This document shows, piece by piece, positions 11,654 to 51,206 of a DNA stretch of 64,000 nucleotides. Below the pieces are notes generated by a model, which was not told the origin of the DNA, did not search any database, and saw only the letters and a program-made list of their open reading frames with translations. The translations under genes were made by a program, and so were the position numbers. This DNA comes from Escherichia phage SKA64, in the sequence record OM362897.1. One strand, 5' to 3'. Within the stretch, counting starts at the first letter, position 1; every line of letters begins with the position of its first letter.

Positions 11654-11884
11654 TTACTTGTGCAGTGCTCTCTCGTATAACTCAATGATCAATTCATCCT
11701 CTACTGTAATACGCGCCATTTGATCCGTCTTGAGTATTGTTGGTTGGTAGTGGTGCATTTCACTATTGATACTACAATCCCATTCGTCATAACCTAAATA
11801 CTCTCCTACATGGACCTTAACCATAAAGGGAAACGGGTTATCTACCAAAAATGCCATACAACCTTCTTCGATTTTATTTAACAC
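11654..11884 (-). CDS. hypothetical protein
   Basis: ORF track. Confidence 0.5.
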   Translation of the reverse strand: MLNKIEEGCMAFLVDNPFPFMVKVHVGEYLGYDEWDCSINSEMHHYQPTILKTDQMARITVEDELIIELYERALHK

Positions 11885-11907
11885 ACGACCTCCTATTGCT
11901 ACAGATA

Positions 11908-11931
11908 TGAAAAAACCCGCCGAAGCGGGTT
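11908..11931 (-). terminator. rho-independent terminator (minus strand)
   Basis: acccgccgaagcgggt hairpin; U-run on minus strand after it. Confidence 0.6.
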
Positions 11932-11975
11932 CTATTGCTACGATAGGATCACTATCCTATAGTATTGTTTCTGTG

Positions 11976-12257
11976 TCAAGCCTTAGCGTAGAAAAACTTC
12001 TCATATTCAGATTTTGTTACGATTGTGGGGCAACCTTTTGTTCCATCCTCGATAACAGGGGCTTCTACCATTCTGGTGTTGAATAAGCAATAAGTTCCAC
12101 GCATGTAAATACCCAGTTTTGTTTCTACGATGTGCTCTTTACTTACGCTTGAAAACTTAATCTCACCATCGGAGTCTCTTATAGCAATAAGCGCATGTTC
12201 GGGCCAATCTTTTCCTTTTGCTCCTAAAGCATTATACAATTCTTGAACGAGTTCCAT
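11976..12257 (-). CDS. hypothetical protein
   Basis: ORF track; GGAGG RBS on minus strand. Confidence 0.5.
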   Translation of the reverse strand: MELVQELYNALGAKGKDWPEHALIAIRDSDGEIKFSSVSKEHIVETKLGIYMRGTYCLFNTRMVEAPVIEDGTKGCPTIVTKSEYEKFFYAKA

Positions 12258-14728: not shown

Positions 14729-14929
14729 TCTTCCTCCTGTTCGGTATTATTCACTTGTGAGACACAATGTAACACAAGCTTTGTGAGTTTGTCAAGGATC
14801 TAATTACATTCTACAGAAGAAGAGGGTTAATAACTATAGGAATAGTCTTACTATAGGTGCAATACTAGTTAAGAGTTAGATTGATAGGTAAGATTTATCT
14901 TAAACAGATAATTGATAGGTGAATCAGCA

Positions 14930-14995
14930 TTGACTTTTTCAAAAAAATATGGTACCCTAAACATATGTTTACGAGCGATAGCGAGTAGTAGATTT
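14930..14995 (+). repeat. conserved about 65 bp element, copy 1
   Basis: TTGACTTTTTCAAAAAAATATGGTACCCTAAAC, 12 nt variable, GAGCGATAGCGAGTA; near-identical copy at 50073-50138. Confidence 0.45.
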
Positions 14996-15088
14996 CTATA
15001 TAATAATGTTTCATGTTACTCACGATAGTGAGGTATGAAACGTAAGTGAAGGTAGATAAACTATGATCATCTATCTACCATCTATTAA

Positions 15089-15863: not shown

Positions 15864-16059
15864 TTCTACCTCCTTCAATGCTTTGTGCCGTACCATCCCA
15901 AGCCATTAGAATGTTTTCCAATAGTTCACGAGGCTCTTTAAACCAAACTTCCATTTCATCAAGAATCTCGTCCGTGTCGTAAGTATAACCTGGAACACCA
16001 AGTTCACATTTCTTAAGATAGCTTTCTAACCAGCGGTGATAATTCTTAACCCCATTCAT
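15856..16059 (-). CDS. hypothetical protein
   Basis: ORF track. Confidence 0.5.
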   Translation of the reverse strand: MNGVKNYHRWLESYLKKCELGVPGYTYDTDEILDEMEVWFKEPRELLENILMAWDGTAQSIEGGRNE

Positions 16060-16432
16060 ACTGTGCTACCTTTTCTTTTACCCAATCTACACGATCTTTA
16101 TCATAATGTTGAGTGCCAAGGAAAAGACCATTGTGGAAACTTTCCTCACCGAAAGGATAAATTAGATCTAAACCATCTTCTTCAAACAACATTTTTAATC
16201 TGTTTGATGTAGATTTCTTAGTTTCTGAATTGTAGTTTGTGGTTATAAGCCAATCTTCCAAACAACGACACAAGCCTTGACGAGAATCCCAAGGAAAAAC
16301 ACAATCTCCGACAGGAGCTTGTTCCGCCCATTTCAACCAACCTTTAAAAAAGTTATACAATATGTAGTCTTCAGTGTAATACATTAGCGCCTCCTTTACA
16401 TATACAATAACACCCCGCAGAACGGGGTGCAA
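16046..16432 (-). CDS. paralog family A member
   Basis: shares F-x-K-x-WL, GLC-x-CL, PF and C-terminal WV-x-(D/E)-(K/R)-(I/V) blocks with five other ORFs. Confidence 0.55.
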   Translation of the reverse strand: MHPVLRGVIVYVKEALMYYTEDYILYNFFKGWLKWAEQAPVGDCVFPWDSRQGLCRCLEDWLITTNYNSETKKSTSNRLKMLFEEDGLDLIYPFGEESFHNGLFLGTQHYDKDRVDWVKEKVAQYEWG

Positions 16433-16435
16433 CTG

Positions 16436-17047
16436 TTATTTAATCTGTTTGAAAATTTCGTTTGGAACAGTACCGTTTAAAATACCTTCTACGATCTCCT
16501 GTGCAGACGTGTAAGAGAGTCCAAAAGAAGCTACGCCTAAAATTGCCTCCTTCAAAGGATCTGGCAGGGGTTCAAAGTTACCTGCAACAAAGCCACCTGC
16601 ACAAGCAGCGCCTTCATCATCCCAGAAAACAACTGCTACATCGTTACCATGCGAAGTCGTGCGATGTGCAATAACTTCAACTTCGGTGCCTTCTTTAGGA
16701 ACAGAATAAGAACTGTCCCAAGAATATCTTTCCAAATCAGGAACAAAGATAACCTTTTCACCTACTGGCGGCAGTTCACAACGATAATACCAAGAATTTT
16801 TTTCGTTCATTGTTTTATTTTCCTCCACGTCTTCAAAAGTAACGATCCAATCGTAGCCGTAAGAAAACGGATATTTTAGATCTAAAGAATAAGTTTGACC
16901 CAGATCGTCCTCAACAAGAACCATCCTATCAAAGTTTGCGATGTTAGGATTATGTTTAATGACAGGGTATGTTTCCCCTACAGTAAATTGTCCCAAATGG
17001 TAAAGTTCATCTCTCCAAGTAATTTGGATATGAGTGCATTGAATCAT
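16436..17047 (-). CDS. hypothetical protein
   Basis: ORF track. Confidence 0.55.
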   Translation of the reverse strand: MIQCTHIQITWRDELYHLGQFTVGETYPVIKHNPNIANFDRMVLVEDDLGQTYSLDLKYPFSYGYDWIVTFEDVEENKTMNEKNSWYYRCELPPVGEKVIFVPDLERYSWDSSYSVPKEGTEVEVIAHRTTSHGNDVAVVFWDDEGAACAGGFVAGNFEPLPDPLKEAILGVASFGLSYTSAQEIVEGILNGTVPNEIFKQIK

Positions 17048-17051
17048 AAAA

Positions 17052-17324
17052 TCACCCCCAAGAAATATTTATATATCTTACAATGTTTGCACTGTCTAAA
17101 GCCATGTTTGCACCACACCCACGCTCGCGCCAGTAACTAACAATACCTTCACAGATACTCTCTTGTATCTTCTTATCACTTGGCATTTCTAGTATAAGAT
17201 TTGGGTTATGGATGTTTATGTTATAATATCCTTCCTCTGCGGCTTGAGCTACCAATTTACTTACTTTTTCAAAGTACGGGGAATTAGTGGCATCTGCTAT
17301 TGTTTTTAAGGTTTGTCTATCCAT
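17052..17324 (-). CDS. hypothetical protein
   Basis: ORF track. Confidence 0.5.
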   Translation of the reverse strand: MDRQTLKTIADATNSPYFEKVSKLVAQAAEEGYYNINIHNPNLILEMPSDKKIQESICEGIVSYWRERGCGANMALDSANIVRYINISWG

Positions 17325-17722
17325 TATTCTGCCTCATCATAGAAGAAATCCAACTCTTGTTCCAGTTGTTTAACTCGATCCTTAACCCACTGTACACGTT
17401 TTTCATTAAACATGCAACGTTTTTCCTTACACTCTTGCTCAAAAGATTTTGCTGTGTTAAATGGGAAAGTTGTATCTAAGCCAGCGTTTTCAAAACTGGC
17501 TAATTGCATACCATAAACAGAATATGCTAAAGAATGCTCGGCCCGAAATTCATCACTTATATACATACGTAGACCTCGGCATAAGCCAACATCAGCGTAA
17601 CCACTTTCTCTTGGAAAGAGACGGAGGTGTTCTAACCAATTATTATAGAAATCTAAAAGAATCCTCTTACACTTCAAATCGATTGTCATAAAAAGTTTCT
17701 CCTTCATCGAACAAGTTGGCAA
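17324..17722 (-). CDS. paralog family A member
   Basis: LLDFYNNWL...GLCRGL...FPFN...VQWVKDRV. Confidence 0.55.
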   Translation of the reverse strand: MPTCSMKEKLFMTIDLKCKRILLDFYNNWLEHLRLFPRESGYADVGLCRGLRMYISDEFRAEHSLAYSVYGMQLASFENAGLDTTFPFNTAKSFEQECKEKRCMFNEKRVQWVKDRVKQLEQELDFFYDEAE

Positions 17723-18089
17723 GATTGTTCACGGCAATCTGGGTGGAAAGAAGACAACTGTTTGCAGACACATAAGCACGAGCTATTTTGTAAACATAGG
17801 CTTTCGTATTACAATTGTCTAGGATCGGAAGACTTTCGTCGATAGCATCTATAACACTAAACATCACATCTAAAACTTTAATGGTGAGTGTTGTATTTGT
17901 ATCTTCGTAACCTTTTTCAATCCGACCTGAATAGAAAGCATAGTCCTCAACAGTTCGTCGTTTAAACTGGCGCATAAAATCGGAACCATCTGTAGCAGAA
18001 TTGAACAAATTTTCAAAAAATACGTCCCATCCGGCAAAAAGGGCTGACAGCATGATTAAGTGATCTACAGATTCATTTTCTTGTTTCAT
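17667..18089 (-). CDS. hypothetical protein
   Basis: ORF track; GGAGAGGA RBS. Confidence 0.5.
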   Translation of the reverse strand: MKQENESVDHLIMLSALFAGWDVFFENLFNSATDGSDFMRQFKRRTVEDYAFYSGRIEKGYEDTNTTLTIKVLDVMFSVIDAIDESLPILDNCNTKAYVYKIARAYVSANSCLLSTQIAVNNLANLFDEGETFYDNRFEV

Positions 18090-18097
18090 ATCCTCTC

Positions 18098-18775
18098 CTA
18101 TTTAATGTTCAGTCTGGCACACAAACGAGAAACAGTTTTAGCATCCCATTTACCACCACGTGCTGTTGCTATTTTCTTACTATTGAATTTTTCAGCAATA
18201 GTTTTGTAAGGTGTATTTAAATCTCTAAGGATCTCCAAGCGTTCACGGAATGTCTCTGCAAAAGCGTCTGCTTTAACAGAGTTGTATTCCATTTTTCCTT
18301 TTCTACGTGCAGCGGCAGTTTTAGGATTAGCACTGCCTAATAAAACACCTTTGCTTTTTGCTACAGCAAGACCCTTTTTAATACGATCAGCAATACCTCT
18401 AACTTCTTGTTCAGCCAGAACAGACAGAAGCTGTATAACCATTTTATCTGCGTCTGGCATAATGGCTATCTTAACATCGATCATTTCTAGAAGAGTTGCT
18501 ACGGAGGCGTTATTACGACCCAAGCGGTCAACTTTAGCTACCAATAAAGTTGCTCCGGTAGCTTTACACATTTCAACCGCTTTAACCAGTTCCTTACGTT
18601 GCTTCCAATCGCCCTTACCCGAATAGTATTCAGAAAATTGACCAATAACTTCCGCATCAGGCACAGAGTCTAAGAAGTAACGGATATCATTCTCTTGGCT
18701 CTCCATACCATATTGTGCCTCACCTTTTTTCTGTTTAGAAAGACGACTGTAAACAACAAACTTTTTCATAACCAC
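18098..18775 (-). CDS. small serine recombinase (resolvase/invertase family)
   Basis: YSRLS catalytic-Ser context, LLVAKVDRLGRN, E-x-E...I-x-x-RIKKGL blocks; 225 aa, no large-integrase extension. Confidence 0.7.
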   Translation of the reverse strand: MVMKKFVVYSRLSKQKKGEAQYGMESQENDIRYFLDSVPDAEVIGQFSEYYSGKGDWKQRKELVKAVEMCKATGATLLVAKVDRLGRNNASVATLLEMIDVKIAIMPDADKMVIQLLSVLAEQEVRGIADRIKKGLAVAKSKGVLLGSANPKTAAARRKGKMEYNSVKADAFAETFRERLEILRDLNTPYKTIAEKFNSKKIATARGGKWDAKTVSRLCARLNIK

Positions 18776-18839
18776 TCCTAAACCATTGCTGTATTCTCAC
18801 TTTACAAAACGAATAAACACTTGTCAAGGTATTTATTAT

Positions 18840-19052
18840 TTACAGCCATTCTACTCTTAAGCAGTATTCCTCGACATGTTGTTTACGCTTGTTTTTGTCT
18901 ATGTAAGTGTATTCAACAAATGTCCCAAGATAGTCCTTGTCTACAGTGTGTGGGCTATTGATTGGACATTTAGTACGACAAACCCGTTGCCACTGACGAA
19001 GAATTACGGCTTTGTTTTTAGGATCAAATGGATGAGGGTAATGTACCTTCAT
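18840..19052 (-). CDS. hypothetical protein
   Basis: ORF track. Confidence 0.45.
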   Translation of the reverse strand: MKVHYPHPFDPKNKAVILRQWQRVCRTKCPINSPHTVDKDYLGTFVEYTYIDKNKRKQHVEEYCLRVEWL

Positions 19053-19376
19053 TCACGCCCCCTGTTTTAGTCGAAAAATATTTTGAATAACTAGAGATGT
19101 ATAGTTATCACCTAGTCCCATAAGTTCTACTTCCAAGTTTCTAATATCTTCCACCGTAGGAGGATATGTTGGTAAAAATGCTTGAGCATTGCCAGATCCA
19201 ACCTCATTGCTGTAAGCAGTTGTAAAATTGTAAGATACAAAACATGAAACACCTTTTTGTCGGTACCCGATTAATCGACGAATACACCAGATAAGAGCTA
19301 AACCTATGAGAACACCTCCTAAACCAGCTAACAAGAAGGATAAGTTCATAATAGCTTCGTTAACAACTGCTTGCAT
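19053..19376 (-). CDS. membrane-anchored protein
   Basis: ORF track; hydrophobic LSFLLAGLGGVLIGLALIW segment. Confidence 0.5.
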   Translation of the reverse strand: MQAVVNEAIMNLSFLLAGLGGVLIGLALIWCIRRLIGYRQKGVSCFVSYNFTTAYSNEVGSGNAQAFLPTYPPTVEDIRNLEVELMGLGDNYTSLVIQNIFRLKQGA

Positions 19377-19386
19377 TCTTTTCTCC

Positions 19387-19740
19387 TTAGTTATGTAAAC
19401 CCAAATGCGCTACAACTTCCCTACGATAAGATAACTGCATAGCGATTTTATAGCCAGGATGAAAACCATTTACATCAATGTCATCAAACCAAACCTCAAA
19501 CGAACCGTGCTTAAGGGTCATTAAGTTGATATACCATTCGATAGTATAATGATCGTTAGCAATACCTTCGATGTAAAACTCTCGGCAACAATGAGATAAA
19601 TCTTCACTTGTTTCACGTTTCCAGTCTTTGATAGCACCCTTCTCTTTAGCTTTATTCAGAATGTGGATCAGGTCTTCAACTTGCATATTCTCTCCTTTAG
19701 TTCCAACTAATAATGATGTGTTTGATAATCCCAAAAACAC
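19387..19740 (-). CDS. hypothetical protein
   Basis: ORF track. Confidence 0.5.
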   Translation of the reverse strand: MFLGLSNTSLLVGTKGENMQVEDLIHILNKAKEKGAIKDWKRETSEDLSHCCREFYIEGIANDHYTIEWYINLMTLKHGSFEVWFDDIDVNGFHPGYKIAMQLSYRREVVAHLGLHN

Positions 19741-20251
19741 TGTGCTCTGCGGTTGCCAATGTTACATCCAAACCTTTTGCACGTAGCATTGTAGCTACAA
19801 CATTTGCCCCTCTTTTCTGCTCACTTATCTGTTCATAAGAAGAAGGGTTATTGCACAAACCAAAACTGGAAGGTTCAAAGTATTTTTCAAACTTCCCTTG
19901 TTCCGCACAATCTTCAATCTCTAATAGAACGGCGTCTACCATTTCAGTAAAATGGGAATTTGCTTGCAGTGCTTTATTACGCAGTTTATCACGTAAACTT
20001 CCCGTAGATTCTTCCTGCTCTTCTGTCTGTCCATCTTCACAGAAAGGATGAAGTTCAGCCCAGTCCCAAGCATCTCCTTCTAAAGCAAATGGAGTGTTGT
20101 AATTGAAGAAAGTGCAGCGCGGATATTCCCCGTTGAAAGAATCTTTCAGCAGAATATATTTCTTACCGTTTGCATGGAAGAGTTCTCCTTTGATAACCTT
20201 ACCTACAAGGATATCACTGTTAGTGGAACGGGTGCAAATAAATTTTTTCAT
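19697..20251 (-). CDS. hypothetical protein
   Basis: ORF track; GAGGAGAA RBS. Confidence 0.55.
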   Translation of the reverse strand: MKKFICTRSTNSDILVGKVIKGELFHANGKKYILLKDSFNGEYPRCTFFNYNTPFALEGDAWDWAELHPFCEDGQTEEQEESTGSLRDKLRNKALQANSHFTEMVDAVLLEIEDCAEQGKFEKYFEPSSFGLCNNPSSYEQISEQKRGANVVATMLRAKGLDVTLATAEHSVFGIIKHIIISWN

Positions 20252-20313
20252 GATTTTCTCCTCTTTGTTTCGATGAGATGATTATGACAAAGACAGATCC
20301 TTCTGTCAACTAT

Positions 20314-20535
20314 TTATTTCCATTCCCCTTGGTGTTCTTTGATCTCATAAGAGTAGTATTCGAACATGCTCATACAAACCACACCAGACATTTCTAAACA
20401 AAGAGGTTTACTATTATAAAAGGCACTTATCATTCTTCCAGCTTTATCTGCTGACTCTTTAGTATCACATCCGCAAACTGTTCTCACCCAAGGATTAGGG
20501 CCATCATACTTAAGACGCACAATCCACATGATCAT
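20314..20535 (-). CDS. hypothetical protein
   Basis: ORF track. Confidence 0.45.
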   Translation of the reverse strand: MIMWIVRLKYDGPNPWVRTVCGCDTKESADKAGRMISAFYNSKPLCLEMSGVVCMSMFEYYSYEIKEHQGEWK

Positions 20536-20759
20536 TCTTCCATCTCAAACCATTCAGGGAACACTTTGCGGAAGACCCGCGTGTTTTCTAAGAGAAATTC
20601 CAACTCTTTTTCCAAATCTGCGTTCCAACCGTTTATTTTAACACGGATTGCCAATGCACTTGCACGGCGACTCAATTCTTGACAGATTGGATCACGCAGA
20701 ACTATTGAGTCATAAAACTGACAAACAGCCTCAAGTTCATACCAGTTATAATCTGACAT
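20532..20759 (-). CDS. hypothetical protein
   Basis: ORF track; ATGA overlap. Confidence 0.45.
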   Translation of the reverse strand: MSDYNWYELEAVCQFYDSIVLRDPICQELSRRASALAIRVKINGWNADLEKELEFLLENTRVFRKVFPEWFEMEE

Positions 20760-21085
20760 TATTCATCCTCCTCTGCAATACGATCTCTTACCCAATTAAT
20801 CCTGTCCACGTTCAGGTGACATACCTCTGCATCTGATTCTAAGACATATGCATCGTAGTTCTCATTGAAAGGGAGTGCTTGACTCAACCCTTTATAGTGG
20901 AACTGCGCGTGCATTTCATCTGATAAGGTCGTTATAATGGGGTTGTAATTGCCTCTGTGCACATAGTCGAATAAGTTGGCACACAAACCGCAATCCCGCC
21001 GAAAAGGTTTACCATCAGGAGCACCAACATCAATCCATGCTAGATAAATTTTATAAAACTCTATCAACCTTGCGCTTGTTTTCAT
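20759..21085 (-). CDS. paralog family A member
   Basis: FYKIYLAWI...GLCANL...PFN...INWVRDRI. Confidence 0.55.
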   Translation of the reverse strand: MKTSARLIEFYKIYLAWIDVGAPDGKPFRRDCGLCANLFDYVHRGNYNPIITTLSDEMHAQFHYKGLSQALPFNENYDAYVLESDAEVCHLNVDRINWVRDRIAEEDE

Positions 21086-21323
21086 TTAGCCACCTCGTTA
21101 GTTTTTCTTGCTCTTTGTTTGCGCGTTCTAAGCTTCTGAACTTTAAACAGAGGGAACGAGAATCCCTACCCATGCACAAGCTTTCATCTAAGCTGTGCTC
21201 CCCAACCAACCAAAGAGAGTATGTTTGAACATCTAACCCATAGTTTCTGTCTTTCCATAATCTCACCCCAAGAACATCAAAAGGAGCTTCCGTGACTAAA
21301 GAAAGAAACCGATCTTTATTCAT
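21051..21323 (-). CDS. hypothetical protein
   Basis: ORF track. Confidence 0.45.
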   Translation of the reverse strand: MNKDRFLSLVTEAPFDVLGVRLWKDRNYGLDVQTYSLWLVGEHSLDESLCMGRDSRSLCLKFRSLERANKEQEKLTRWLNENKRKVDRVL

Positions 21324-21385
21324 ATTACACCACCTTACTCACGTTGATAATGTATGTATACCATACATAAAATAAATGTCAAGGC

Positions 21386-21586
21386 TTATCGACACAGATA
21401 GTTGTAACGATCTGCTTTATCCTCTGCTTCAGCAAAGTCAGCAATCAAGGAAGTTTTAAGTTCTTCCAACTCTTTCACCCAAGAGTCGTAATCGTCCTGT
21501 GTTTCTCCAATAGTTTGGAGAAAACAATCGTCGTAGCCAATAGACATGGCTAACTCGATAATACGTTCCAGTTTTTCTTCCATCAC
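21386..21586 (-). CDS. hypothetical protein
   Basis: ORF track. Confidence 0.45.
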   Translation of the reverse strand: MMEEKLERIIELAMSIGYDDCFLQTIGETQDDYDSWVKELEELKTSLIADFAEAEDKADRYNYLCR

Positions 21587-21945
21587 TTCTCTCCTTCTAC
21601 AGACTTCTGTTTAACATAAAAGTAAGCACCACGGGCAAGATACAAATCATGTTCAATATCGCTCACAGGAAAACCATCTGGATTTTTAAAACCATCTTCT
21701 ACAGCCAAAATGAGAGATCGTAAACTGATAGCTAACAACTCCATTTGATCTTGTAGTTTTCTATTTTCTGCGTAAAGGTTTTTGCATTTTTGTTCTGCAT
21801 TTTTCCATTGTTCTAATGCATGATCATAGCGGTGCATAAGAATAGCTTTTTCTTGTTCACGCTTAAAAGTTTCTTCGCAAATGAAACCTGTGCCTAAACC
21901 AGTTTCTTCGTCTTTGACAAACACTTCAACAAAATCTTTAGACAT
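21583..21945 (-). CDS. hypothetical protein
   Basis: internal ATG (MSKDF) with AGGAGA RBS preferred so as not to overlap neighbour. Confidence 0.5.
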   Translation of the reverse strand: MSKDFVEVFVKDEETGLGTGFICEETFKREQEKAILMHRYDHALEQWKNAEQKCKNLYAENRKLQDQMELLAISLRSLILAVEDGFKNPDGFPVSDIEHDLYLARGAYFYVKQKSVEGEK

Positions 21946-21946
21946 A

Positions 21947-22210
21947 TTATCTCCTATTTGCTTTCGGATACTCCCAACCCTCTGGGAGATCTTCTTTACA
22001 CATCCACTCAAAAGGCCAGCGACAATAACTGTGCCACTTTCCATTGAGATACAAACAATCTTCATCTATTGGTCCACAAGGGTTGATAACTACAACACAC
22101 CCTTTTGCTCGCCAATATTGAACTATTTCAGGGTAAAAACAAGAAACGTCGGTCCACTCCCAAATACGTTCATCATTCAAACGGTATGCTGCTGGCAATG
22201 TCTCTTTCAT
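21947..22210 (-). CDS. Cys/Trp-rich small protein
   Basis: ORF track. Confidence 0.45.
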   Translation of the reverse strand: MKETLPAAYRLNDERIWEWTDVSCFYPEIVQYWRAKGCVVVINPCGPIDEDCLYLNGKWHSYCRWPFEWMCKEDLPEGWEYPKANRR

Positions 22211-22214
22211 ATTA

Positions 22215-22661
22215 TTAAACCTCTGTCAAAGAGAAACGCCAATCCTTACTACTACCTACGCCAAGGAAGATATAGTCTCCGGTACTAACGGAAATACGCC
22301 AAGCGGGAATCCAATCAGGAATCTCTGGCTTATGGCTGTAACCATAACGATCACCATCCGAGTCTGTTGCAATATAATTAACAAATTCAGGAACATCTAA
22401 AGTTTCACCTTGATACTCTACACGCTTGAAGCCATCTTCCACTTCTTTCTCACCTTCTACCAGACAAGCAAGAAGTTTGATGTGAGGGCAAGTGAAATCT
22501 TGTCCTGGATAACGTGAACGGATATCGGTTAACAATGCGATCACAGCATCCGATAACTCTTTATAATCCTCATATCTTACAAATGTGCCTTCTGTCGGAT
22601 CATCAGGACACAAACGCCAAGCATCGTTGCAGTTTACAGCATAATGTCTCACTTTAGTCAT
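22215..22661 (-). CDS. hypothetical protein
   Basis: ORF track. Confidence 0.5.
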   Translation of the reverse strand: MTKVRHYAVNCNDAWRLCPDDPTEGTFVRYEDYKELSDAVIALLTDIRSRYPGQDFTCPHIKLLACLVEGEKEVEDGFKRVEYQGETLDVPEFVNYIATDSDGDRYGYSHKPEIPDWIPAWRISVSTGDYIFLGVGSSKDWRFSLTEV

Positions 22662-22670
22662 AAATCCCCC

Positions 22671-23069
22671 TTATCGTTGCGTACAATCAGCTTCTAGAGT
22701 AAGAACATTCGTTATTGTTTTATCATTTTTTAGAAATGCAAACCAAGCTAAAGTGTCTCGATACTCTGTGCGCATCATCACAACTTCAGTAGTGCCAATA
22801 AACTGTTGTGAACCGTACATAGCACTACCATCTTTACTTTTTTCTCCTGTGTGTTGCAGAATGCCACTCATCAAAGCACCACCTGAATTTTTAAGGATAA
22901 AGGAGTTATCTTTATTAATGACAACAGAAGCCATTTTCTTAGGACCAGAAATAACTTCACCTTTCAGATTTTTAACAACCACATCTGACACACACTCATA
23001 AACTTGAGACGCATTTGCTGTTCCAAGTGATGCAATGAGTAACAATAAACCTACGATGATCTTTTTCAT
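22671..23069 (-). CDS. secreted protein with Sec signal peptide
   Basis: MKKIIVGLLLLIASLGTANA-SQ signal peptide; AGAGGAG RBS. Confidence 0.55.
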   Translation of the reverse strand: MKKIIVGLLLLIASLGTANASQVYECVSDVVVKNLKGEVISGPKKMASVVINKDNSFILKNSGGALMSGILQHTGEKSKDGSAMYGSQQFIGTTEVVMMRTEYRDTLAWFAFLKNDKTITNVLTLEADCTQR

Positions 23070-23164
23070 ATAAACTCTCCTCTTTATTTACCCGACGCGC
23101 CCCTGTTGGGCGGAAAGGGTTGTACGCAAAATTTTTAGCTCCAATCGTCGGGTGTCCCGACTCC

Positions 23165-23371
23165 TTACGCTTTTAATGTTTTAACAGAATGACAAGCTTT
23201 GCAAACCATAACCGGAACAAGTTCGTCTCCACTATCCGCATAAATCACTGTTTTCTTCATTCTGCCACCACATGAACAATACTCTGTATGATCCACTGGA
23301 ATATTAAATATTCCGTAATCACTTTCATACTGTTTCTTACATATGGACACTGCTTTTGTAAAACAAGACAT
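23165..23371 (-). CDS. small zinc-ribbon protein
   Basis: ORF track; C-x-C...C-x2-C. Confidence 0.5.
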   Translation of the reverse strand: MSCFTKAVSICKKQYESDYGIFNIPVDHTEYCSCGGRMKKTVIYADSGDELVPVMVCKACHSVKTLKA

Positions 23372-23373
23372 AC

Positions 23374-23595
23374 CTACTCCGAAAGAACATTCACTTCATC
23401 AGAGAAAAATACGTAATCACAACCTTCCCAAACATCTTCTTCAAACCACTCCCATCCCTCAACTTTGGACATTTCTTCTATCGTAACAAAGAATGTTGTC
23501 ATGTCATCGCTAACAAGATGTGCTTCAACAACAAAAGGAATCTGAACATTCTCAAAACCAACATAACCCAATACATCACAAACTCTAATTTTCAT
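23374..23595 (-). CDS. paralog family B member
   Basis: shares W-x-WF-x-E...EG-x-DYVFF with 26970..27200. Confidence 0.5.
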   Translation of the reverse strand: MKIRVCDVLGYVGFENVQIPFVVEAHLVSDDMTTFFVTIEEMSKVEGWEWFEEDVWEGCDYVFFSDEVNVLSE

Positions 23596-23596
23596 A

Positions 23597-23797
23597 TTAT
23601 GCTCCTTTGTAGATTATGTTGGTGCGTTCACACTCTGCTACCAGCAAGCGATTAGCAATGTTATCCATAGGAACATTAATCTCTACACTCCAGGCATTGA
23701 TACACACTTCTTCAATCTTTGCTCCCAACATTTGTGCGATCAGGGCAACAGCCCCAGCATATTCAAGTTTAATCTCAATTACCATTTTGCACCTCAA
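23597..23797 (-). CDS. hypothetical protein
   Basis: ORF track. Confidence 0.45.
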   Translation of the reverse strand: MRCKMVIEIKLEYAGAVALIAQMLGAKIEEVCINAWSVEINVPMDNIANRLLVAECERTNIIYKGA

Positions 23798-23799
23798 GG

Positions 23800-24036
23800 T
23801 TATTTATCTTGCTTGTATCTTACAAGGCGATCACACTCTAGGTCAAGAAATTTCTCCGCATTTCGTTCATGTTTGAGCACAATACATTGTTCTTTCCAGT
23901 CTGTAGCTCTTTGCTGCGCTGCTCCTGGGTCAAAATCCCAAAGCCATGCCGCGAAAAGAACAACCATAACAATCACTAAGAAACTAAACACTATTGGCAT
24001 TGCACATCCTCCTGTGTAGCATGGTCTTTTACCCAT
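23800..24036 (-). CDS. small membrane protein
   Basis: ORF track; PIVFSFLVIVMVVLFAAWLW hydrophobic helix. Confidence 0.45.
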   Translation of the reverse strand: MGKRPCYTGGCAMPIVFSFLVIVMVVLFAAWLWDFDPGAAQQRATDWKEQCIVLKHERNAEKFLDLECDRLVRYKQDK

Positions 24037-24305
24037 TTTATACGGGCAGCATTCAAATGCAATAGCCCGTTTCTTTGTGCAAAATCATATTTAAACCAGT
24101 CTCCGTCATCAAACGGGTATTCTTCAGACAATCCTGCCTCACGGAATTGCATTTGCATTTCATAATTTAGATCATCATAACCTCCAGTCCAAAGGTAGAG
24201 GCAACTACATAATCCTTTATCATGCCAGAAAGGATTATTATCTGGAGCACCAGCTAACAGCCAGTTATGATATGCTTGATAAAATTCTTTAAGTTCTTCT
24301 GACAT
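23991..24305 (-). CDS. paralog family A member
   Basis: FYQAYHNWL...GLCSCL...IKWVKDH. Confidence 0.55.
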   Translation of the reverse strand: MSEELKEFYQAYHNWLLAGAPDNNPFWHDKGLCSCLYLWTGGYDDLNYEMQMQFREAGLSEEYPFDDGDWFKYDFAQRNGLLHLNAARIKWVKDHATQEDVQCQ

Positions 24306-24482
24306 TTAACCTCCTGTGTACAGGGTTGAAAGATACACAGCAAAAGCATTCTCGGCTGTTTTCACCTCCTCTTCAAGATCTTCACGCTCTGCTGGCGTTA
24401 ATGCATTCCGCACAGCAGCGTCTGCTTCTCGGATTTTTCTTACTAAACGTGAAACATCTTTCAATTGTTGAAAAGTAGCCAT
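24306..24482 (-). CDS. 58 aa small protein (not in ORF track)
   Basis: ATG after GGAGAAAG; MATFQQLKDVSRLVRKIREADAAVRNALTPAER... Confidence 0.4.
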   Translation of the reverse strand: MATFQQLKDVSRLVRKIREADAAVRNALTPAEREDLEEEVKTAENAFAVYLSTLYTGG

Positions 24483-24497
24483 AATCTTTCTCCTGTT

Positions 24498-24782
24498 TTA
24501 GTGAGTATCACGCCATTCGGCAATCTCTTCGGCTAAACGATCACAAGAATCGAAAGCCACTTTACCTTTAGTCTGATTTTCATATCGCACTTCCTTCAAT
24601 GCGAGTAATGCATTCACCAGATTATCAACACCTTGATCATCCAGTGCGATAACATCGAAGTTAAACCCTGTGTCAGTTGGGACTTTACGTTTTATGGTGT
24701 AATAGTCCCCTTCATGACGTTCAACATACACGTATGGGTAACTGCTGTTCGGATCATGTTTTACGCGAATAGATGTTTTCAT
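24498..24782 (-). CDS. hypothetical protein
   Basis: ORF track; GGAGAACAAAAC RBS. Confidence 0.5.
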   Translation of the reverse strand: MKTSIRVKHDPNSSYPYVYVERHEGDYYTIKRKVPTDTGFNFDVIALDDQGVDNLVNALLALKEVRYENQTKGKVAFDSCDRLAEEIAEWRDTH

Positions 24783-24797
24783 GTTTTGTTCTCCTCT

Positions 24798-25049
24798 TTA
24801 GTCAAACCAGTTGTATTCAGAAGGGTAACGAGCGTAGTTTGGCTTATACCCCAACCTTTTCATCTTAACAGACATACGAGTGAAGCCAAAGGTTGTTTTG
24901 CCCTTAGACATAAACTTCTTCCCGCTCTTCATTGGCTTCTTAGGGTTTTTGATCGTCTGGTGTAACGCTCGCGCAAGCCACAAAGTGTATGCGCTCGGCA
25001 CTTGATTAACTTTCATCTTGTTACCTTTCATCATTTCACCTCGGACCAA
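24798..25049 (-). CDS. small basic protein
   Basis: ORF track; Lys/Arg rich. Confidence 0.45.
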   Translation of the reverse strand: MVRGEMMKGNKMKVNQVPSAYTLWLARALHQTIKNPKKPMKSGKKFMSKGKTTFGFTRMSVKMKRLGYKPNYARYPSEYNWFD

Positions 25050-25330
25050 TCAATAGTGATCCACTCGTATGCCCCGTTCAGATCCATTTCTTTATAAACA
25101 ATAAGCCCACGCTCACGAAGAATTGCTACTGCTTCATCCATCCACTTCACCTGATTGTAGATCTGCTCTGGGTGGGTGGGAGAATTATTCAGACCAAAAT
25201 CAGATGGCGTGAAATTTCTTGAAGAGTTTCCCGCTCGTGCTTCAGCAAAACATGTCTCGATCACTTCTTCAACAGGGAAGTTGAAGGAAGCTTCTTTTGC
25301 AATACGGCGTAACTGTTCGGTCAGATTCAT
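25031..25330 (-). CDS. hypothetical protein
   Basis: ORF track; AAGGAGAA RBS. Confidence 0.5.
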   Translation of the reverse strand: MNLTEQLRRIAKEASFNFPVEEVIETCFAEARAGNSSRNFTPSDFGLNNSPTHPEQIYNQVKWMDEAVAILRERGLIVYKEMDLNGAYEWITIDWSEVK

Positions 25331-25357
25331 CTTATTCTCCTTTCGTTGTGCGAAACA

Positions 25358-25861
25358 TTATAACAGATCTAATGCTTTCAACTCTTCTTTCAATGATTCA
25401 GGCAGGTCACATTCAATGTCAATCAGAGATAACAAGTGACCAACAATGCCTTCCAGATGTTGATACTCACTATAACTTATAAATTCAGAATTGTAAACAG
25501 AAACATCCTTAGTTTCTTTCACAACTTCCCCCGCAGACACGCACATAAAAAAGTTACGCTCTCCGCGAGCTAACAATATCTCCCAACTCCTGAACGGATA
25601 CTGTCCAGCTTCAATAATATCCCCGCTGTCCAATAAAGTCAATGAGCAAACAGACCCTGATTCACTAACATCCTCGACGCGGAAACAAGACCCTTCAATC
25701 AAAGCTGCCATTTTGAAATTTTCATCAGAGATCATAGAGAAAGCTTCACAGGCAGCTTTACTTTTGAAACAATAAACAGCATTAACTTTAAACATAACAT
25801 TCCCCTTTTTAAACAAAAGATACGCCGATGGTAGCAACAACCAAACGTTTATAAACTTCAA
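25358..25861 (-). CDS. hypothetical protein
   Basis: ORF track. Confidence 0.5.
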   Translation of the reverse strand: MKFINVWLLLPSAYLLFKKGNVMFKVNAVYCFKSKAACEAFSMISDENFKMAALIEGSCFRVEDVSESGSVCSLTLLDSGDIIEAGQYPFRSWEILLARGERNFFMCVSAGEVVKETKDVSVYNSEFISYSEYQHLEGIVGHLLSLIDIECDLPESLKEELKALDLL

Positions 25862-26267
25862 CCTCTTCTGTAGGATTAGACATTTTATGCTCTGCTGCCT
25901 CTTTCAAAGCTTCTTCATAACTTTCAAATCCAGAAATACAGGTGTCATCAGTCATTACAACATACCACTCTTCTTTTGTTGTATCAACAGGTTCTTCTTG
26001 TGGTTTTCCACGACCACCACGAACACCACCGTCAACAAAATAATCTATATGAGCAGAATTGATTATGTAACGATCCCCATCACCAGCAGTGATAATACCG
26101 TCTCTCATACCTATTACAACCATTGACAAGATATTACCATTTGCATCAGTGCTCAACACCTCGAAAAAATTCTCTCCAATGATAGCAGCAATACTGTTAT
26201 CAAAGGTAGAATATAATCGCATATAATCCTCATCCTGGAAACGGTAGACATGACCTTCTTTAAACAT
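25809..26267 (-). CDS. hypothetical protein
   Basis: ORF track. Confidence 0.5.
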   Translation of the reverse strand: MFKEGHVYRFQDEDYMRLYSTFDNSIAAIIGENFFEVLSTDANGNILSMVVIGMRDGIITAGDGDRYIINSAHIDYFVDGGVRGGRGKPQEEPVDTTKEEWYVVMTDDTCISGFESYEEALKEAAEHKMSNPTEEVEVYKRLVVATIGVSFV

Positions 26268-26721
26268 TGTTCTCTCCTCCTAACTCATCATACCATTTCA
26301 AAGCGTCTTTTGGAAGCATACCAAAATCTTCTTTTAGTTCTTTTTCAATCTCTTCTTGCATTTCCATCAGCGTTTTCAGTTGACGGACTTTTTTGTGCAT
26401 AGCCACATTCCTTTCATTAAGGTTTGTCACTACATTATTTGCACGACTCGGTGGAAATGACAAAGGTTTCACGGGAAGATAATCTTCGATATTATCTAGT
26501 GCGTTACGAAAATTATGATCCAAGAAACGCACATCTACACGATTGTAATCGGCAGCTACAACAGTGAACACTTTAAACGGCACATTGGATAAAGTATGTT
26601 GCACATAGACAGTACCCATATTGCCTTCAATTTTACTATTAACTTCCAGCAAACCTGTATGAGCACTAACATAATCGTGAACACATTGCACATAAGCTGC
26701 CAGTATAGTGAATTGTCTCAT
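26260..26721 (-). CDS. hypothetical protein
   Basis: ORF track. Confidence 0.5.
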   Translation of the reverse strand: MRQFTILAAYVQCVHDYVSAHTGLLEVNSKIEGNMGTVYVQHTLSNVPFKVFTVVAADYNRVDVRFLDHNFRNALDNIEDYLPVKPLSFPPSRANNVVTNLNERNVAMHKKVRQLKTLMEMQEEIEKELKEDFGMLPKDALKWYDELGGENNV

Positions 26722-26957
26722 TTTCTACCTCCCCATAATGCTAACATTTTATTGAAAATGGAAACGCGTCGTGCGCGAGATGCCATATCATAATTCATTC
26801 TTTCCGTCCCTGCAAGAAATTGATCTACTGTAATCAACGCTTTTGTCTTCTCTTTCAGAGTTTGCATATTCATCCATTCACATTCAGAGTACCAATTATC
26901 GAAATACAAACTATCAAGAAGATCCATTGCTGCTTCGTTCTGCTGTGGTGTGATCAT
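26718..26957 (-). CDS. hypothetical protein
   Basis: ORF track. Confidence 0.45.
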   Translation of the reverse strand: MITPQQNEAAMDLLDSLYFDNWYSECEWMNMQTLKEKTKALITVDQFLAGTERMNYDMASRARRVSIFNKMLALWGGRK

Positions 26958-26969
26958 TGCACACTACCT

Positions 26970-27200
26970 TTAATAGACAATGTTATATTCGTGAGGAAAG
27001 AAAACATAATCTTCCCCTTCTCGTGCATCTATCTCGTCCCAAAACCATTCCTGCACTTCCATCATCTTCGAGAATCGCACATGAGCAAGCCCACTGTATT
27101 CCACCGTAGCTTCCAGCACAAGTGGAAATTTTGCATGTGCCAATCCTTTATAACCACCATCATTCTCAATACGAATTTTCATGCGTTTCATATTATGCAT
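26970..27200 (-). CDS. paralog family B member
   Basis: MEVQEWFWDEIDAREGEDYVFF matches 23374..23595. Confidence 0.5.
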   Translation of the reverse strand: MHNMKRMKIRIENDGGYKGLAHAKFPLVLEATVEYSGLAHVRFSKMMEVQEWFWDEIDAREGEDYVFFPHEYNIVY

Positions 27201-27402
27201 CCTTCAAACCCTTAATAAAGTAACGACCAACCGGATTCCCTCGGAAGTATTCGTTAATGAAATCGATAACACACGTTTCACTGCCTGTCACAACGGACGG
27301 TGCGAAGTTTCGGAACTGCACGAGTACACGACTTGCGTTAGCAAGGGTGTGCACACGATCAGTGTTAGCTAAATACAAGGATACAGTTTTCATATTTGAC
27401 AT
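27193..27402 (-). CDS. hypothetical protein
   Basis: ORF track; GAGGAGA RBS. Confidence 0.45.
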   Translation of the reverse strand: MSNMKTVSLYLANTDRVHTLANASRVLVQFRNFAPSVVTGSETCVIDFINEYFRGNPVGRYFIKGLKDA

Positions 27403-27461
27403 TTCAATCTCCTCATTGGCTATCTGTTATGCGCGGTATGCAAACCACTATACAGACATTT

Positions 27462-27830
27462 TTATTCAATGCAAGCATTATTTGCATCTTCAATTCTGTC
27501 TTTCACCCATTGAAGACGTAACGTGTTGGTATGACACGCCAAGTTTATACACTCTGAAAGGTAATCCATGCAATCTGCATTGAACGGAAGATTGTAGTCC
27601 AGCCCTGCACATGTAAATTGTTTCCTCATTTCATATTTCAAGCGGTCCAACAAACTATCCCGCCATCTTCTATCTTCTTCTCTAGTTGTCTCACCAACAA
27701 AATCATTTACATAATCTACCAGACAACCACATAAGCCACTCGTTGTGCGATTCATTGCAGGATAGTTGGCAATCCATGCTTTATAGAAGCGAAGCAATGT
27801 TGCACTGCTCAACGGAATACTATTTGTCAT
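27462..27830 (-). CDS. paralog family A member
   Basis: FYKAWIANY...GLCGCL...PFN...LQWVKDRI. Confidence 0.55.
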   Translation of the reverse strand: MTNSIPLSSATLLRFYKAWIANYPAMNRTTSGLCGCLVDYVNDFVGETTREEDRRWRDSLLDRLKYEMRKQFTCAGLDYNLPFNADCMDYLSECINLACHTNTLRLQWVKDRIEDANNACIE

Positions 27831-28164
27831 TTTTCTCTCCTTCGTAATCTTGAATTCTATCTAGCACCCATTGTATACGATGTTTGTTTTTATGGCAAAT
27901 ATGTTTTTTATGTTCGAAGGTGTATTCTTCATAACCACCTTCATTAAACGGGAAATTGTAATCCAATCCTGCACCAATAAACTGTGATTTCATCTCCTGT
28001 TGTAGACGAGGTAACAGTTCATCAGGATATGTTCCCTCTACATACTTAATCAAACATATACACAAGCCACTCGTTGTGTGACCTTCTACCTCACCAGCAA
28101 GCCAAGCTTTGTAAAACTTCATTAGACGTAAACTACTCAACGGAACATTTTTACTCTCTTGCAT
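27820..28164 (-). CDS. paralog family A member
   Basis: FYKAWLAGE...GLCICL...FPFN...IQWVLDRI; adjacent to previous member. Confidence 0.55.
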   Translation of the reverse strand: MQESKNVPLSSLRLMKFYKAWLAGEVEGHTTSGLCICLIKYVEGTYPDELLPRLQQEMKSQFIGAGLDYNFPFNEGGYEEYTFEHKKHICHKNKHRIQWVLDRIQDYEGEKNDK

Positions 28165-28891
28165 GATAATCTCCTCTCATCGTTAGCCATCTTTCATGGC
28201 AATCATCAATCACCAACATCATACGATCAATCTTAGGGAATTACAATCGAATTATCATAGGGGATTCCTATCAATTATCCCATATATACCGATTATTTTT
28301 GACACCCCACTCTTGTATAAAAAGTAACCCAAAATATCTACGGGGAGAGATTATTTCGGGACACCCTGTTTCATGGCAATCATGGCAAGAATATCTAATA
28401 GAATCAATATCATATGGCAAAAATCATGGCGCATACGTAAGAAGTGCTTAACGCGAATTTTCGGGCCGTCAGGTCCACGCAGCGACAATTCCCAAATATC
28501 ATGAGAATGAGAATAATTATCATTCGTATTCAATGACTTATGCAAGGCTTATGCCAACGTAGCGACAAGGTGGGCCACTTGATTATAAATCACACAAACA
28601 CTTATTTATCAATGGTTTGGCAACCTCATCATATGACGGAACAATGTCAACTGATCCCGCTCATGACAAGCAGACTATTATTTATATGAGAATGATTATT
28701 ATTTAAACGTTTATTAGCATAAAAACTAAAATAAATCAAGAATTTTCTGATTTTATTTACGTTTAAGAGAAGATGCTCAACATATCGCTACGCGATAGTA
28801 TTCGCCCCCGAAAGATTAGCCTTTATTTTCTTGTATGTTTATACGCTATGTGCACACTATGCAACCTGTCGCTATTCGCTCATGTTGCTAC

Positions 28892-29167
28892 GTGCTAATA
28901 CTTCACCGTGCTAATGATCTTTGAGCGATAGCGATTATTTCATCTTGTAATTACCACAATGATTATTGTTATTGCGCTAATGTTATGATCTTGGTAATTA
29001 CATATAATGCTAATAATAAGCCAGCGCAATAAGTGTAAGCGTATTACGCTTGCAATTATTGCAAGCTACGCAGTAACAAGAAATAACCATCACCGATGGT
29101 TATGATTGTTGGGGTGTAGTTGGCTTATTATTAGCTCGCTATGTGTCCGGCATAGCGTGCTAATGAT
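28892..29167. repeat. iteron-like direct repeats (C)GTGCTAATGAT plus palindromes
   Basis: GTGCTAAT-type copies at about 28892, 28908, 28974, 29008, 29157; palindromes AAGCGTAtTACGCTT (about 29037-29051), TTGCAATtATTGCAA (29050-29064), AACCATCaccGATGGTT (29085-29101). Confidence 0.5.
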
Positions 29168-29684
29168 GACTCTGTGAATGATTCGTTTTGTAATGATTTC
29201 ATTTAGTCACTATTATGGCAATAGTTATTATTTTAATGGTTTCGTTTGTTATTGTTCGTTAGTTGGTTGTTTTGTCGTGTTATCGTTATCTTGCTTAGTA
29301 TTCATCATGGTTTGATTGTTTGTTGTTATCAATCATCTTGCTATTATTCCTTTGATTATGATTAGTTTGCTTATTGTTTTATGTTGTTTGTTGGTTAGTT
29401 GTTGCGAACTATTATCAACATTATAGTTATGCACTTATATTGCATAGATAAACATGGATAGATGATAATGGTTATCATTGCACTAGAAAGGAGGTAAAAG
29501 GGTGTTTTTGATGGTTTGTTGTTGGTTGTTGATCGATTTTAACCGCTTTAAATGGCTCTCTAACAGCCTGTTACCCTGGGAGGTATGGTTATTCATTTAA
29601 TGGTTGATTAGCTCGATACCGCGATCTATTCAGTTTTGTTCTGTGTCGGTTTTTCATAGGCGGAATCTATCAACATTATTCAGG

Positions 29685-29720
29685 CAAAAAGAAAGGGCGC
29701 TTAGTGCGCCCCTTGTTTTG
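29685..29720. terminator. bidirectional terminator
   Basis: GGGCGCttagtGCGCCC hairpin flanked by A-run and T-run; same hairpin recurs at about 30260 and 36052. Confidence 0.6.
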
Positions 29721-29727
29721 TTGTCAA

Positions 29728-33381: not shown

Positions 33382-33651
33382 TTATTTTTTCAAGCTTGAC
33401 CACTCAAAACACGGGGCGATCTCGTTAAAACTTGTGCCCTGTAAAGCACATAATTTTTTAGCAATAGCCGCCGTGACCTGGCGCTGTACGCGCGGATCTG
33501 CTACTGATTGGAGAAAGTAGGCGGCTTTATATGTGATCATGCTTTCACCTGTTTCCTTGTTAACATGATGCACTATTTTAGCCTTATCATCTTTTACCAG
33601 GATGTAACCGGATTCGATGGCCTTGATTGCAACGTCTAATGATATTTTCAT
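33382..33651 (-). CDS. hypothetical protein
   Basis: ORF track; intergenic hairpin ggcgggggagtattccccgcc upstream without promoter. Confidence 0.55.
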   Translation of the reverse strand: MKISLDVAIKAIESGYILVKDDKAKIVHHVNKETGESMITYKAAYFLQSVADPRVQRQVTAAIAKKLCALQGTSFNEIAPCFEWSSLKK

Positions 33652-33698
33652 GATTTACCTCTTTATTGACGGCGGGGAATACTCCCCCGCCTCATTAA

Positions 33699-33869
33699 TT
33701 ATTCTTCATCGTCGCCGTTATAGTATTCAATGCCATTTTCATCGGTTACGGTGATGTTAACGCCACCGATAGCAACACGATCACGGGCAAACGTCATAGC
33801 TTCATTTAAATCTTCAGACCAAAAAATATTGTGACCTTTGCGCGATACATAAAACATAGTCGGGATCAT
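33699..33869 (-). CDS. hypothetical protein (56 aa)
   Basis: internal ATG (MIPTMFY) after AGAAGAGAAAC; track extension covers hairpin. Confidence 0.5.
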   Translation of the reverse strand: MIPTMFYVSRKGHNIFWSEDLNEAMTFARDRVAIGGVNITVTDENGIEYYNGDDEE

Positions 33870-35546: not shown

Positions 35547-35749
35547 CCTTTATTTTTCCACGGTGTCAGCTTGTTAATCATTGGTGATAAATAGCGTTTA
35601 CCAACGTAAAACAGCACGCCAACTGATGCAACGGCGGCGATCTCATGCATAGCCGACGGGAAACGGGTATCATAATAAGATCCAATAATAGCAATAGCGG
35701 CAACGGCTGCAACGTCGATAATGATTTTTTCTTGTTTTGCGGTGATCAT
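35543..35749 (-). CDS. small membrane protein (68 aa)
   Basis: internal ATG (MITAKQEK) after AAAAAGGTAAA; hydrophobic AAVAAIAIIGSYY. Confidence 0.5.
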   Translation of the reverse strand: MITAKQEKIIIDVAAVAAIAIIGSYYDTRFPSAMHEIAAVASVGVLFYVGKRYLSPMINKLTPWKNKG

Positions 35750-35770
35750 AATATTTACCTTTTTGTATGG

Positions 35771-35829
35771 TGGGGGAACTATTCCCCGCCTGATGTAATA
35801 CAGTTTAACAGGTCCGGTTATGGTGTCAA
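35771..35829 (-). promoter_or_regulatory. promoter + leader hairpin cassette
   Basis: minus strand TTGACA, 16 bp, TAAACT, + ggcggggaatagttccccca hairpin. Confidence 0.5.
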
Positions 35830-35835
35830 CCACTT

Positions 35836-36021
35836 TTAAAGATATTTTATACTGATAACGTTTTCCGGTTTAACCTTGTTGTGATGTGCATCAACATAGA
35901 TCAAACCATCGTCAGAAAAGCCCAGGATCACGCCCTGCGCGATAAAACCGTATTCGTCACGGTAACGCACGGCTATTTTTAATGTTGCGTTGTAGGCTGT
36001 TTTAAGCTCGTTTAAAGTCAT
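35836..36021 (-). CDS. hypothetical protein
   Basis: ORF track. Confidence 0.5.
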   Translation of the reverse strand: MTLNELKTAYNATLKIAVRYRDEYGFIAQGVILGFSDDGLIYVDAHHNKVKPENVISIKYL

Positions 36022-51032: not shown

Positions 51033-51206
51033 ATGGGAGATAAACAAAGTAACATCCGTTACGCGCTTTATGGAAGAATGGGTGCAGATTGTGAATGGAT
51101 GCTTCTGTCGCAACGTATACCCTCTTACAAAGAGGCTCTTGAAAAAAGAGACTATTATAAACAAACATGGCGTTTTGTCATTTGTAAACACTATTTGGAG
51201 GCGTGA
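51033..51206 (+). CDS. 57 aa small protein (not in ORF track)
   Basis: ATG after AAGGAGG; MGDKQSNIRYALYGRMGADCEWMLLSQ...; track ORF 51070..51294 is alternate frame. Confidence 0.4.
   Translation: MGDKQSNIRYALYGRMGADCEWMLLSQRIPSYKEALEKRDYYKQTWRFVICKHYLEA

Follow-up and report, generated by a model that had tools for sequence, protein, structure and literature searches.

The stretch of DNA analysed here, 64,000 nucleotides of Escherichia phage SKA64 (sequence record OM362897.1; referred to below as the window), contains between positions 16046 and 28164 six small open reading frames (ORFs) which a sequence-only reading had proposed to be dispersed paralogues. All six are present on the minus strand and end at the stop codons first assigned to them. 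Named A to F here in order of increasing position, they are genuine genes, each conserved in its own right, and all belong to a single protein family, PHROG 2510 or pVOG VOG7392 ('N4 gp3-like'). More than 50 phAPEC8-like E. coli myoviruses with genomes of around 150 kb (Phapecoctavirus, Stephanstirmvirinae) match this 12-kb stretch at 96–98% identity, and in their records all six ORFs are labelled 'hypothetical protein'.

A six-way alignment of the proteins contains 15 invariant columns, including L..F[YF], GLC, F..(A/G)GL, PF and R..WV, and each of the 15 possible ORF pairs is significant by BLASTP (23–45% identity, E 2e-4 to 4e-32), bearing out the proposal of a single diverged family whose shared blocks are separated by variable sequence. 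The PHROG 2510 profile, built independently of the window, covers each of the six ORFs over its full length (profile positions ~5–113) with E-values of 1.5e-25 to 6.7e-31; the similarity is therefore not the coincidence of composition that the sequence-only reading had named as a refutation of its proposal. One of the blocks it named, GLCxCL, is confined to A, D, E and F, the family consensus being GLCxNL, while Phe10, Cys35, Pro72, Phe73, Arg95 and Trp98 (numbered here and below as in member C) are present in all six paralogues. A hidden Markov model (HMM) of the family, run against all six frames of the window, recovered exactly six members, the next best ORF having E = 0.88, and when run on the whole genome of ESCO25, a close relative, it again recovered exactly six, which share one operon. 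An all-against-all BLASTP comparison of the window gave no second family of paralogues larger than a pair. A Shine-Dalgarno sequence lies 5–10 nt upstream of every member, and the orthologues in phage nepoznato are annotated with pVOG VOG7392.

Member F (27820..28164, minus strand as are all six; 114 residues; PHROG 2510 E 5.6e-26) is the first gene of a leftward early operon and starts with an ATG preceded by the Shine-Dalgarno sequence GAGAGGAG; among orthologues its ratio of nonsynonymous to synonymous polymorphism (pN/pS) is 0.11. Member E (27462..27830; 122 residues; E 1.5e-25; pN/pS 0.24) overlaps the end of F by 11 nt, carries an insertion of 10–15 residues between helices 2 and 3, and has the broadest conservation among the six. 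Member D (23991..24305; 104 residues; E 8e-29; pN/pS 0.02) is both the most acidic (isoelectric point (pI) 4.5 in a set ranging from 4.5 to 6.2, net charge ~-10) and the most constrained. Member C (20759..21085; 108 residues; E 6.7e-31; pN/pS 0.28), for which an AlphaFold2 model was made, is nearest to the family consensus. Members C, D, E and F carry a full polar set of Glu57, Gln61, His90 and Asn92. The remaining two are divergent, with a less certain alignment of helix 3 in both: member B (17324..17689; 121 residues; E 2.9e-26; pN/pS 0.07) is without Glu57, Gln61 and His90, and member A (16046..16384; 112 residues; E 1.4e-26; Shine-Dalgarno AAGGAGG; pN/pS 0.11) is without Glu57 and Gln61, has Asp at position 92, and retains Cys35, His90 and Arg95.

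Four of the six starts stand as first assigned, and those of A and B need to be moved. The most likely start of A is the ATG at 16384 rather than the TTG at 16432, since extending the gene to that TTG would take it into a hairpin and T-run (16430–16410) and since the gene measures 339 nt in relatives. For B the most likely start is the ATG at 17689, which agrees with the 366 nt annotated in relatives, the start at 17722 being that of the longest ORF only. The hairpin upstream of A (16410–16430, minus strand) has a GC-rich stem of 9 bp followed by a T-rich tract, lies between the gene at 16436–17047 and A, and is a possible internal terminator or attenuator within the operon.

The position of the operon within the packaged genome can be read from phage Schickermooser (NC_048196.1), the initial 329 bp of which are repeated with 100% identity as its final 329 bp, both copies mapping to 28449..28777 of the window (a feature without strand). 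Direct terminal repeats are reported at the ends of Stephanstirmvirinae genomes (PMC12695924), and the equivalent of the Schickermooser-type repeat at this site implies that the window spans a physical genome end, the left end lying near 28777, ~610 nt upstream of F. It follows from the same mapping that F and E are genes 1 and 2 of the packaged genome and head a leftward operon of small genes of ~16 kb; in Schickermooser they are gp001 (HOV53_gp001) and gp002 respectively, beside the 329-bp terminal repeat. The leader between the repeat and F (28165..28448, minus strand; analysed by promoter scan, for repeats and by sequence) contains sigma-70-like promoter matches such as TTGTAA-17-TATGAT at 28246–28218, which are consensus matches only, and a 20-nt element with two occurrences 177 nt apart. 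The non-coding stretch of which it forms part (28165–29727, 1.5 kb) holds the terminus, promoter-like sites and short repeats.

The family extends far beyond this group of phages. An exhaustive profile search of 1.84 billion representative sequences recovered 1,767 clusters (50% identity) at E ≤ 1e-3, including 797 at E ≤ 1e-10, and a second, word-indexed protein search with a broad profile made few additions. Many of these clusters are tandem two- or three-domain proteins, and the extra domains of longer homologues are only DUF551 or more copies of the same domain. Members were found by tblastn in 257 phage records, all of them phages of Proteobacteria, and a match was present in one of 72,556 plasmids. 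No relative was detected in 185,579 species genomes by two motif-limited scans, nor in IMG/VR by a motif-limited scan with a narrower query, each of which is weak evidence. The family looks restricted to virulent phages of Proteobacteria. Neighbourhoods of members on metagenomic contigs contain further arrays of unannotated small genes, and one unrelated metagenomic phage contig carries six family genes, with seven domains, in 11.6 kb.

Among model phages, the family includes gp3 of coliphage N4 (ABK54374.1; family HMM E 7e-20) and gene bas61_0145 of phage Bas61 in the BASEL collection. N4 gp3 and PHROG 2510 have in common with the six ORFs the motifs L..FY, GLC, E...QF..AGL, PF and N..R..WV, a length of ~105 residues and an early or leading-end position, whereas N4 and most podoviruses have a single copy where the present phage has six old subfamilies. 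The N4 gene lies at 1.2 kb of 70 kb, third from the left end and between gp2 and the RNAPII genes, which are early genes, gp1 and gp2 being cofactors of RNAPII (PMC4496689). In N4-like phages of Achromobacter, Erwinia and Delftia the member lies at 2–5 kb, and in T7-like phages of Rhizobium and Ralstonia at 2–4 kb; for the N4-like and T7-like phages of hosts other than that of N4 as a whole, the distance from an end is 1–6 kb. Leading-end position is a consistent feature of the family. The sequence-only reading had not recognised the family, and we too find no function attached to it; as a family it was already catalogued, more than 100 deposited phage genomes contain its genes under the label 'hypothetical protein', and no new sequence is involved.

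The six copies had been interpreted as the outcome of repeated duplication under diversifying selection. The first part of this interpretation applies to one pair only. E and F are each other's nearest paralogue (45% identity), are adjacent, and look like a local tandem duplication, the only such pair among the six. For each of A, B, C and D, dozens of homologues in other phages or metagenomes are closer than any genome-mate, and no nucleotide similarity remains between the six copies. The set is therefore best described as an assembly of ancient subfamilies.

The second part is not borne out. Orthologue pN/pS in six close relatives is 0.11 for A, 0.07 for B, 0.28 for C, 0.02 for D, 0.24 for E and 0.11 for F, all within the range of 0–0.36 shown by neighbouring genes; these estimates are gene-wide and could miss positive selection that acts only on the insertion which E carries between helices 2 and 3. 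Variants of the E clade are numerous in metagenomes, at 60–93% identity. The E protein is 89–98% identical across Phapecoctavirus, Justusliebigvirus (including BASEL Bas61) and the proposed 'Wecvirus', and across these three genera its ratio of nonsynonymous to synonymous substitution rates (dN/dS) is ~0.2, with dS ~0.2. Each subfamily is held by purifying selection, and the data do not show recent duplication under diversifying selection. A segment covering E and the ORF at 27193–27402 (27211–27831) has 83–92% nucleotide identity in Justusliebigvirus and phiWec181 while its flanks are unalignable, which suggests recent exchange or unusual constraint.

A check of copy number in related phages, which the sequence-only reading had called for, shows that it does vary, from five in nepoznato through six in most relatives and seven in 10C3 to nine in phiWec181. 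In nepoznato (L013) the F and E pair (27462–28164 of the window) is replaced by one 124-residue gene at 11698–12072 that joins an F N-terminus to an E body, apparently a deletion through recombination between the tandem paralogues; the hybrid protein (P0003) represents 198 member sequences. Extra members absent from the window occur at 4510–4830 in 10C3 (L012) and at 14766–15086 and elsewhere in phiWec181 (L007), and the operon head of phiWec181 has three members compared to two in the window. Frameshifted copies of B and E occur in isolates, one example being B in phage BI-EHEC (P0020). In N4-like phages gp3 lies outside the 14 core genes (PMC4193335). Taken together, the shifts in copy number, the hybrid, the frameshifts and the non-core status of gp3 point to an accessory family of old subfamilies, the members of which are individually dispensable.

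The structure prediction and fold search that had been suggested gave a confident model and no solved relative. The AlphaFold2 model of member C has five helices, with a predicted local distance difference test score (pLDDT) of 94.1 and a predicted template modelling score (pTM) of 0.86, and the domain is confidently predicted to be a compact, cytoplasmic, mostly acidic five-helix unit of ~105 residues without a solved structural neighbour. The fold search found none, solved anti-defence proteins included, structural matches in BFVD were to uncharacterised phage proteins only, and sequence searches of the PDB with two profiles gave nothing below E 0.8. Resemblances below threshold recurred, both to Cmr5/Csm2 and to the helical anticodon-binding domain found in GluRS and class I LysRS, and are a lead only. 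For the two-domain member P0046 the model is a rigid pseudo-dimer (pLDDT 92, pTM 0.79), which is compatible with dimerisation and says nothing on a ligand pocket.

The pattern of conservation was examined in 114 diverse members with at most ~50% identity to one another, most of which are acidic (family median pI 5.3). The six residues shared by all the paralogues of the window, Phe10, Cys35, Pro72, Phe73, Arg95 and Trp98, are invariant in this set. Leu7, Tyr11, Gly33, Leu34, Glu57, Gln61, Phe62, Leu67, Asn92 and Val99 show conservation of 90% or more, and His90 (75%), Tyr80, Glu83 and Asn74 fall between 70 and 85%. Cys35 and Arg95 each occupy the first turn of a predicted helix, helix 2 and helix 5 respectively; read against the predicted secondary structure, Ser4, Asn92 and possibly Asn74 would occupy positions typical of helix caps. 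A HEPN domain, which has an R-x(4-6)-H motif within a four-helix bundle, was considered on account of the cluster of His, Asn and Arg at the start of the last helix and was rejected, the order of the motif being reversed.

Searches for function were negative. Pfam and NCBIfam scans gave no family for the six ORFs or the 114 diverse members, and PADLOC gave nothing for the six ORFs and, among the 114, only three single-member matches to defence-component models at chance level (E 0.005–0.009). In the databases searched no function is attached to PHROG 2510 or VOG7392, and the related PHROGs 6418, 27059 and 2176 are likewise without assigned function. No functional study of the family was found in the literature on N4 gp3, PHROG 2510, Phapecoctavirus early genes, CRISPRi-ART or the BASEL phages Bas60–63.

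Our preferred interpretation, to which we give a probability of roughly 0.45 and which is accordingly tentative, is that the family consists of dispensable, early-expressed, host-directed proteins of counter-defence or host takeover, with a conserved Cys/Arg scaffold, variable loops and a probably dimeric organisation. The proteins would be made in the first minutes of infection and would act on the host rather than in phage development. Judging from the conserved positions, the scaffold would present one polar site, in which the invariant Cys of helix 2 (first turn) and the invariant Arg that opens helix 5 are in most members joined by Glu57, Gln61, His90 and Asn92, and the variable loops (between helices 1 and 2, between helices 2 and 3, and in the region of helix 4) could give each paralogue its own partner. 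The unit is probably a dimer, as suggested by the common natural fusions of two or three domains and by the pseudo-dimer predicted for P0046. Six old, separately maintained subfamilies would in this way widen the range of host targets or strains. A parallel is offered by the leading-end anti-restriction proteins of T7-like phages and plasmids, Ocr (T7 gene 0.3) and ArdA, which are small, acidic and dispensable in permissive hosts and whose genes enter the cell and are expressed very early. The present family resembles them, to judge from what is known of T7 gene 0.3, in leading-end position, probable early expression, small size, acidity and probable dispensability. Anti-restriction by DNA mimicry, which in Ocr and ArdA involves a strong negative charge along an elongated, DNA-like surface and the Ocr/ArdA fold, was itself rejected as the activity of the family, the charge of which is too low.

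Several considerations weigh against this interpretation. Early expression in the present phage is inferred from the leading-end position and the known early region of N4. No annotation or experiment ties any member to a host target or defence system, and the comparisons with PADLOC, Pfam, NCBIfam and solved anti-defence proteins gave no match. The gene-wide pN/pS and dN/dS of orthologues contain no sign of the positive selection expected of an arms race. Finally, a dozen conserved polar residues in 105 exceed what a pure variable binder needs, and fit an enzyme or a ligand pocket equally well.

The alternative rated highest is that the proteins are small thiol-dependent enzymes or covalent modifiers in which Cys35 is the nucleophile or redox centre, assisted by the Arg, Glu, Gln, His and Asn, with paralogues differing in substrate. 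The conservation described above speaks for such a site, from the 100% of Cys35 and Arg95 down to the 75% of His90; nearly all two-domain proteins moreover retain the Cys in each of their halves, and at the predicted first turn of helix 2 it would have its pKa lowered by the helix dipole. An invariant small buried Cys can, however, be purely structural, and the domain has no fold neighbour; we know of no all-helical Cys enzyme of 100 residues of this kind. Glu57 and Gln61 are missing from A and B, and His90 from B as well, yet both paralogues are under strong purifying selection, so the full polar 'site' is not required. Six enzymes of the same type in one phage would also be unusual, and we consider this explanation unlikely.

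Somewhat more doubtful is a role directed at the phage itself, as an RNA-, tRNA- or DNA-binding protein or a cofactor of transcription or replication in the early programme. The location of the N4 member next to the RNAPII cofactors gp1 and gp2 (PMC4496689) is suggestive of such a role, but the family spans phages that depend on the N4 virion RNA polymerase, on a T7-type RNA polymerase and, in the case of the large myoviruses, on that of the host. Absence from the core genes of N4-like phages (PMC4193335), a copy number of anything from one to nine, the loss of members in viable isolates and the acidity of the proteins all argue in the same direction, and we regard this role as distinctly unlikely.

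A third alternative is that the proteins form oligomers that bind a small molecule or act as a sponge for it, for instance for a CBASS, Thoeris or Pycsar nucleotide signal held in a pocket between protomers, with each paralogue binding a different signal. The known sponges (Tad1, Tad2, Acb2, Acb4 and Sequestin, PF21825) are likewise small early phage proteins, often tandem or fused and expected to be oligomers, and small size, oligomers and fusions have been described as typical of viral sponges (bioRxiv 10.1101/2025.07.12.664507). The frequent tandem fusions of the present family and its one predicted rigid pseudo-dimer fit this description, and a pocket lined by the conserved aromatic residues, Arg and His is conceivable. 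Neither in sequence, nor in Pfam content (PF21825 included), nor in fold do the six ORFs resemble Tad1, Tad2, Acb2 or any other solved sponge; the net acidic charge of the family is of the wrong sign, and its fusion partners are the same domain or DUF551, never a known sponge. We therefore rate this explanation as improbable.

The immunity arrays of polymorphic toxin systems (SUKH, Imm) offer a parallel in genomic pattern only: they too are multi-copy, diversified sets of small proteins with tandem-domain fusions, but none of the 114 members has a Pfam Imm or SUKH match and the motif-limited scans did not find the family in bacterial chromosomes. That the shared blocks are coincidental, or that the ORFs are not genes, has a negligible probability and is already refuted by the match to an independent family model at E ≤ 1e-25, the Shine-Dalgarno sites and orthologue pN/pS of 0.02–0.28, with the high-confidence fold prediction standing against it as well.

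Other features of the region were recorded in passing. One of ten larger operon proteins scanned has a Pfam domain, a serine recombinase (resolvase, PF00239, E 5e-18) encoded at 18098–18769 on the minus strand, inside the early operon, which in relatives bears various labels, among them DNA invertase and resolvase and also the erroneous 'methionine ABC transporter ATP-binding protein'. The orthologues in phAPEC8_ev052 of the products of 25358–25795 and 25809–26267 (both minus strand) are labelled 'RNA metabolism moderator of RB51' and 'goF mRNA metabolism modulator of RB69', respectively; in the window, both proteins are without a Pfam match. A 132-residue ORF at 22671–23069 (minus strand) has a signal-peptide-like start, MKKIIVGLLLLIASLGTANA, and may be a secreted or envelope protein among the early genes. 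The window holds four more paralogue families, each a pair with 33–43% identity (19697–20251 and 25031–25330; 23374–23595 and 26970–27200; 51206–51514 and 51514–51819; 33617–33754 and 35645–35839), and small duplicated genes without assigned function abound in the early region. No Rfam family or tRNA was found in the window. Three records of 'Campylobacter phage' (B15, MG065650.1; A110a, MG065689.1; A145, MG065645.1) are near-identical across the region to E. coli Stephanstirmvirinae, and their host labels look doubtful.

The genes described here are a good candidate for functional work and not in themselves a surprising finding. The family is large (1,767 clusters), has no Pfam model, and combines a confidently predicted fold that has no solved relative with an invariant Cys/Arg pair. 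Its members are among the first genes to enter the cell, and they are present in two tractable phages, N4 (gp3) and BASEL Bas61 (bas61_0145). This profile matches that of the phage 'dark matter' which has recently yielded anti-defence proteins. It is conceivable, though we hold it to be rather doubtful, that the N4 gp3-like family represents a new fold and a new, very widespread class of leading-end effectors of counter-defence or host takeover that would act through a reactive Cys/Arg site, by covalent or redox chemistry or by capture of a host molecule; the arrays of six to nine copies in Stephanstirmvirinae would then amount to a 'counter-defence island' in which each subfamily is directed against a different host system. 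The six separately conserved subfamilies in one genome provide a natural panel for target specificity.

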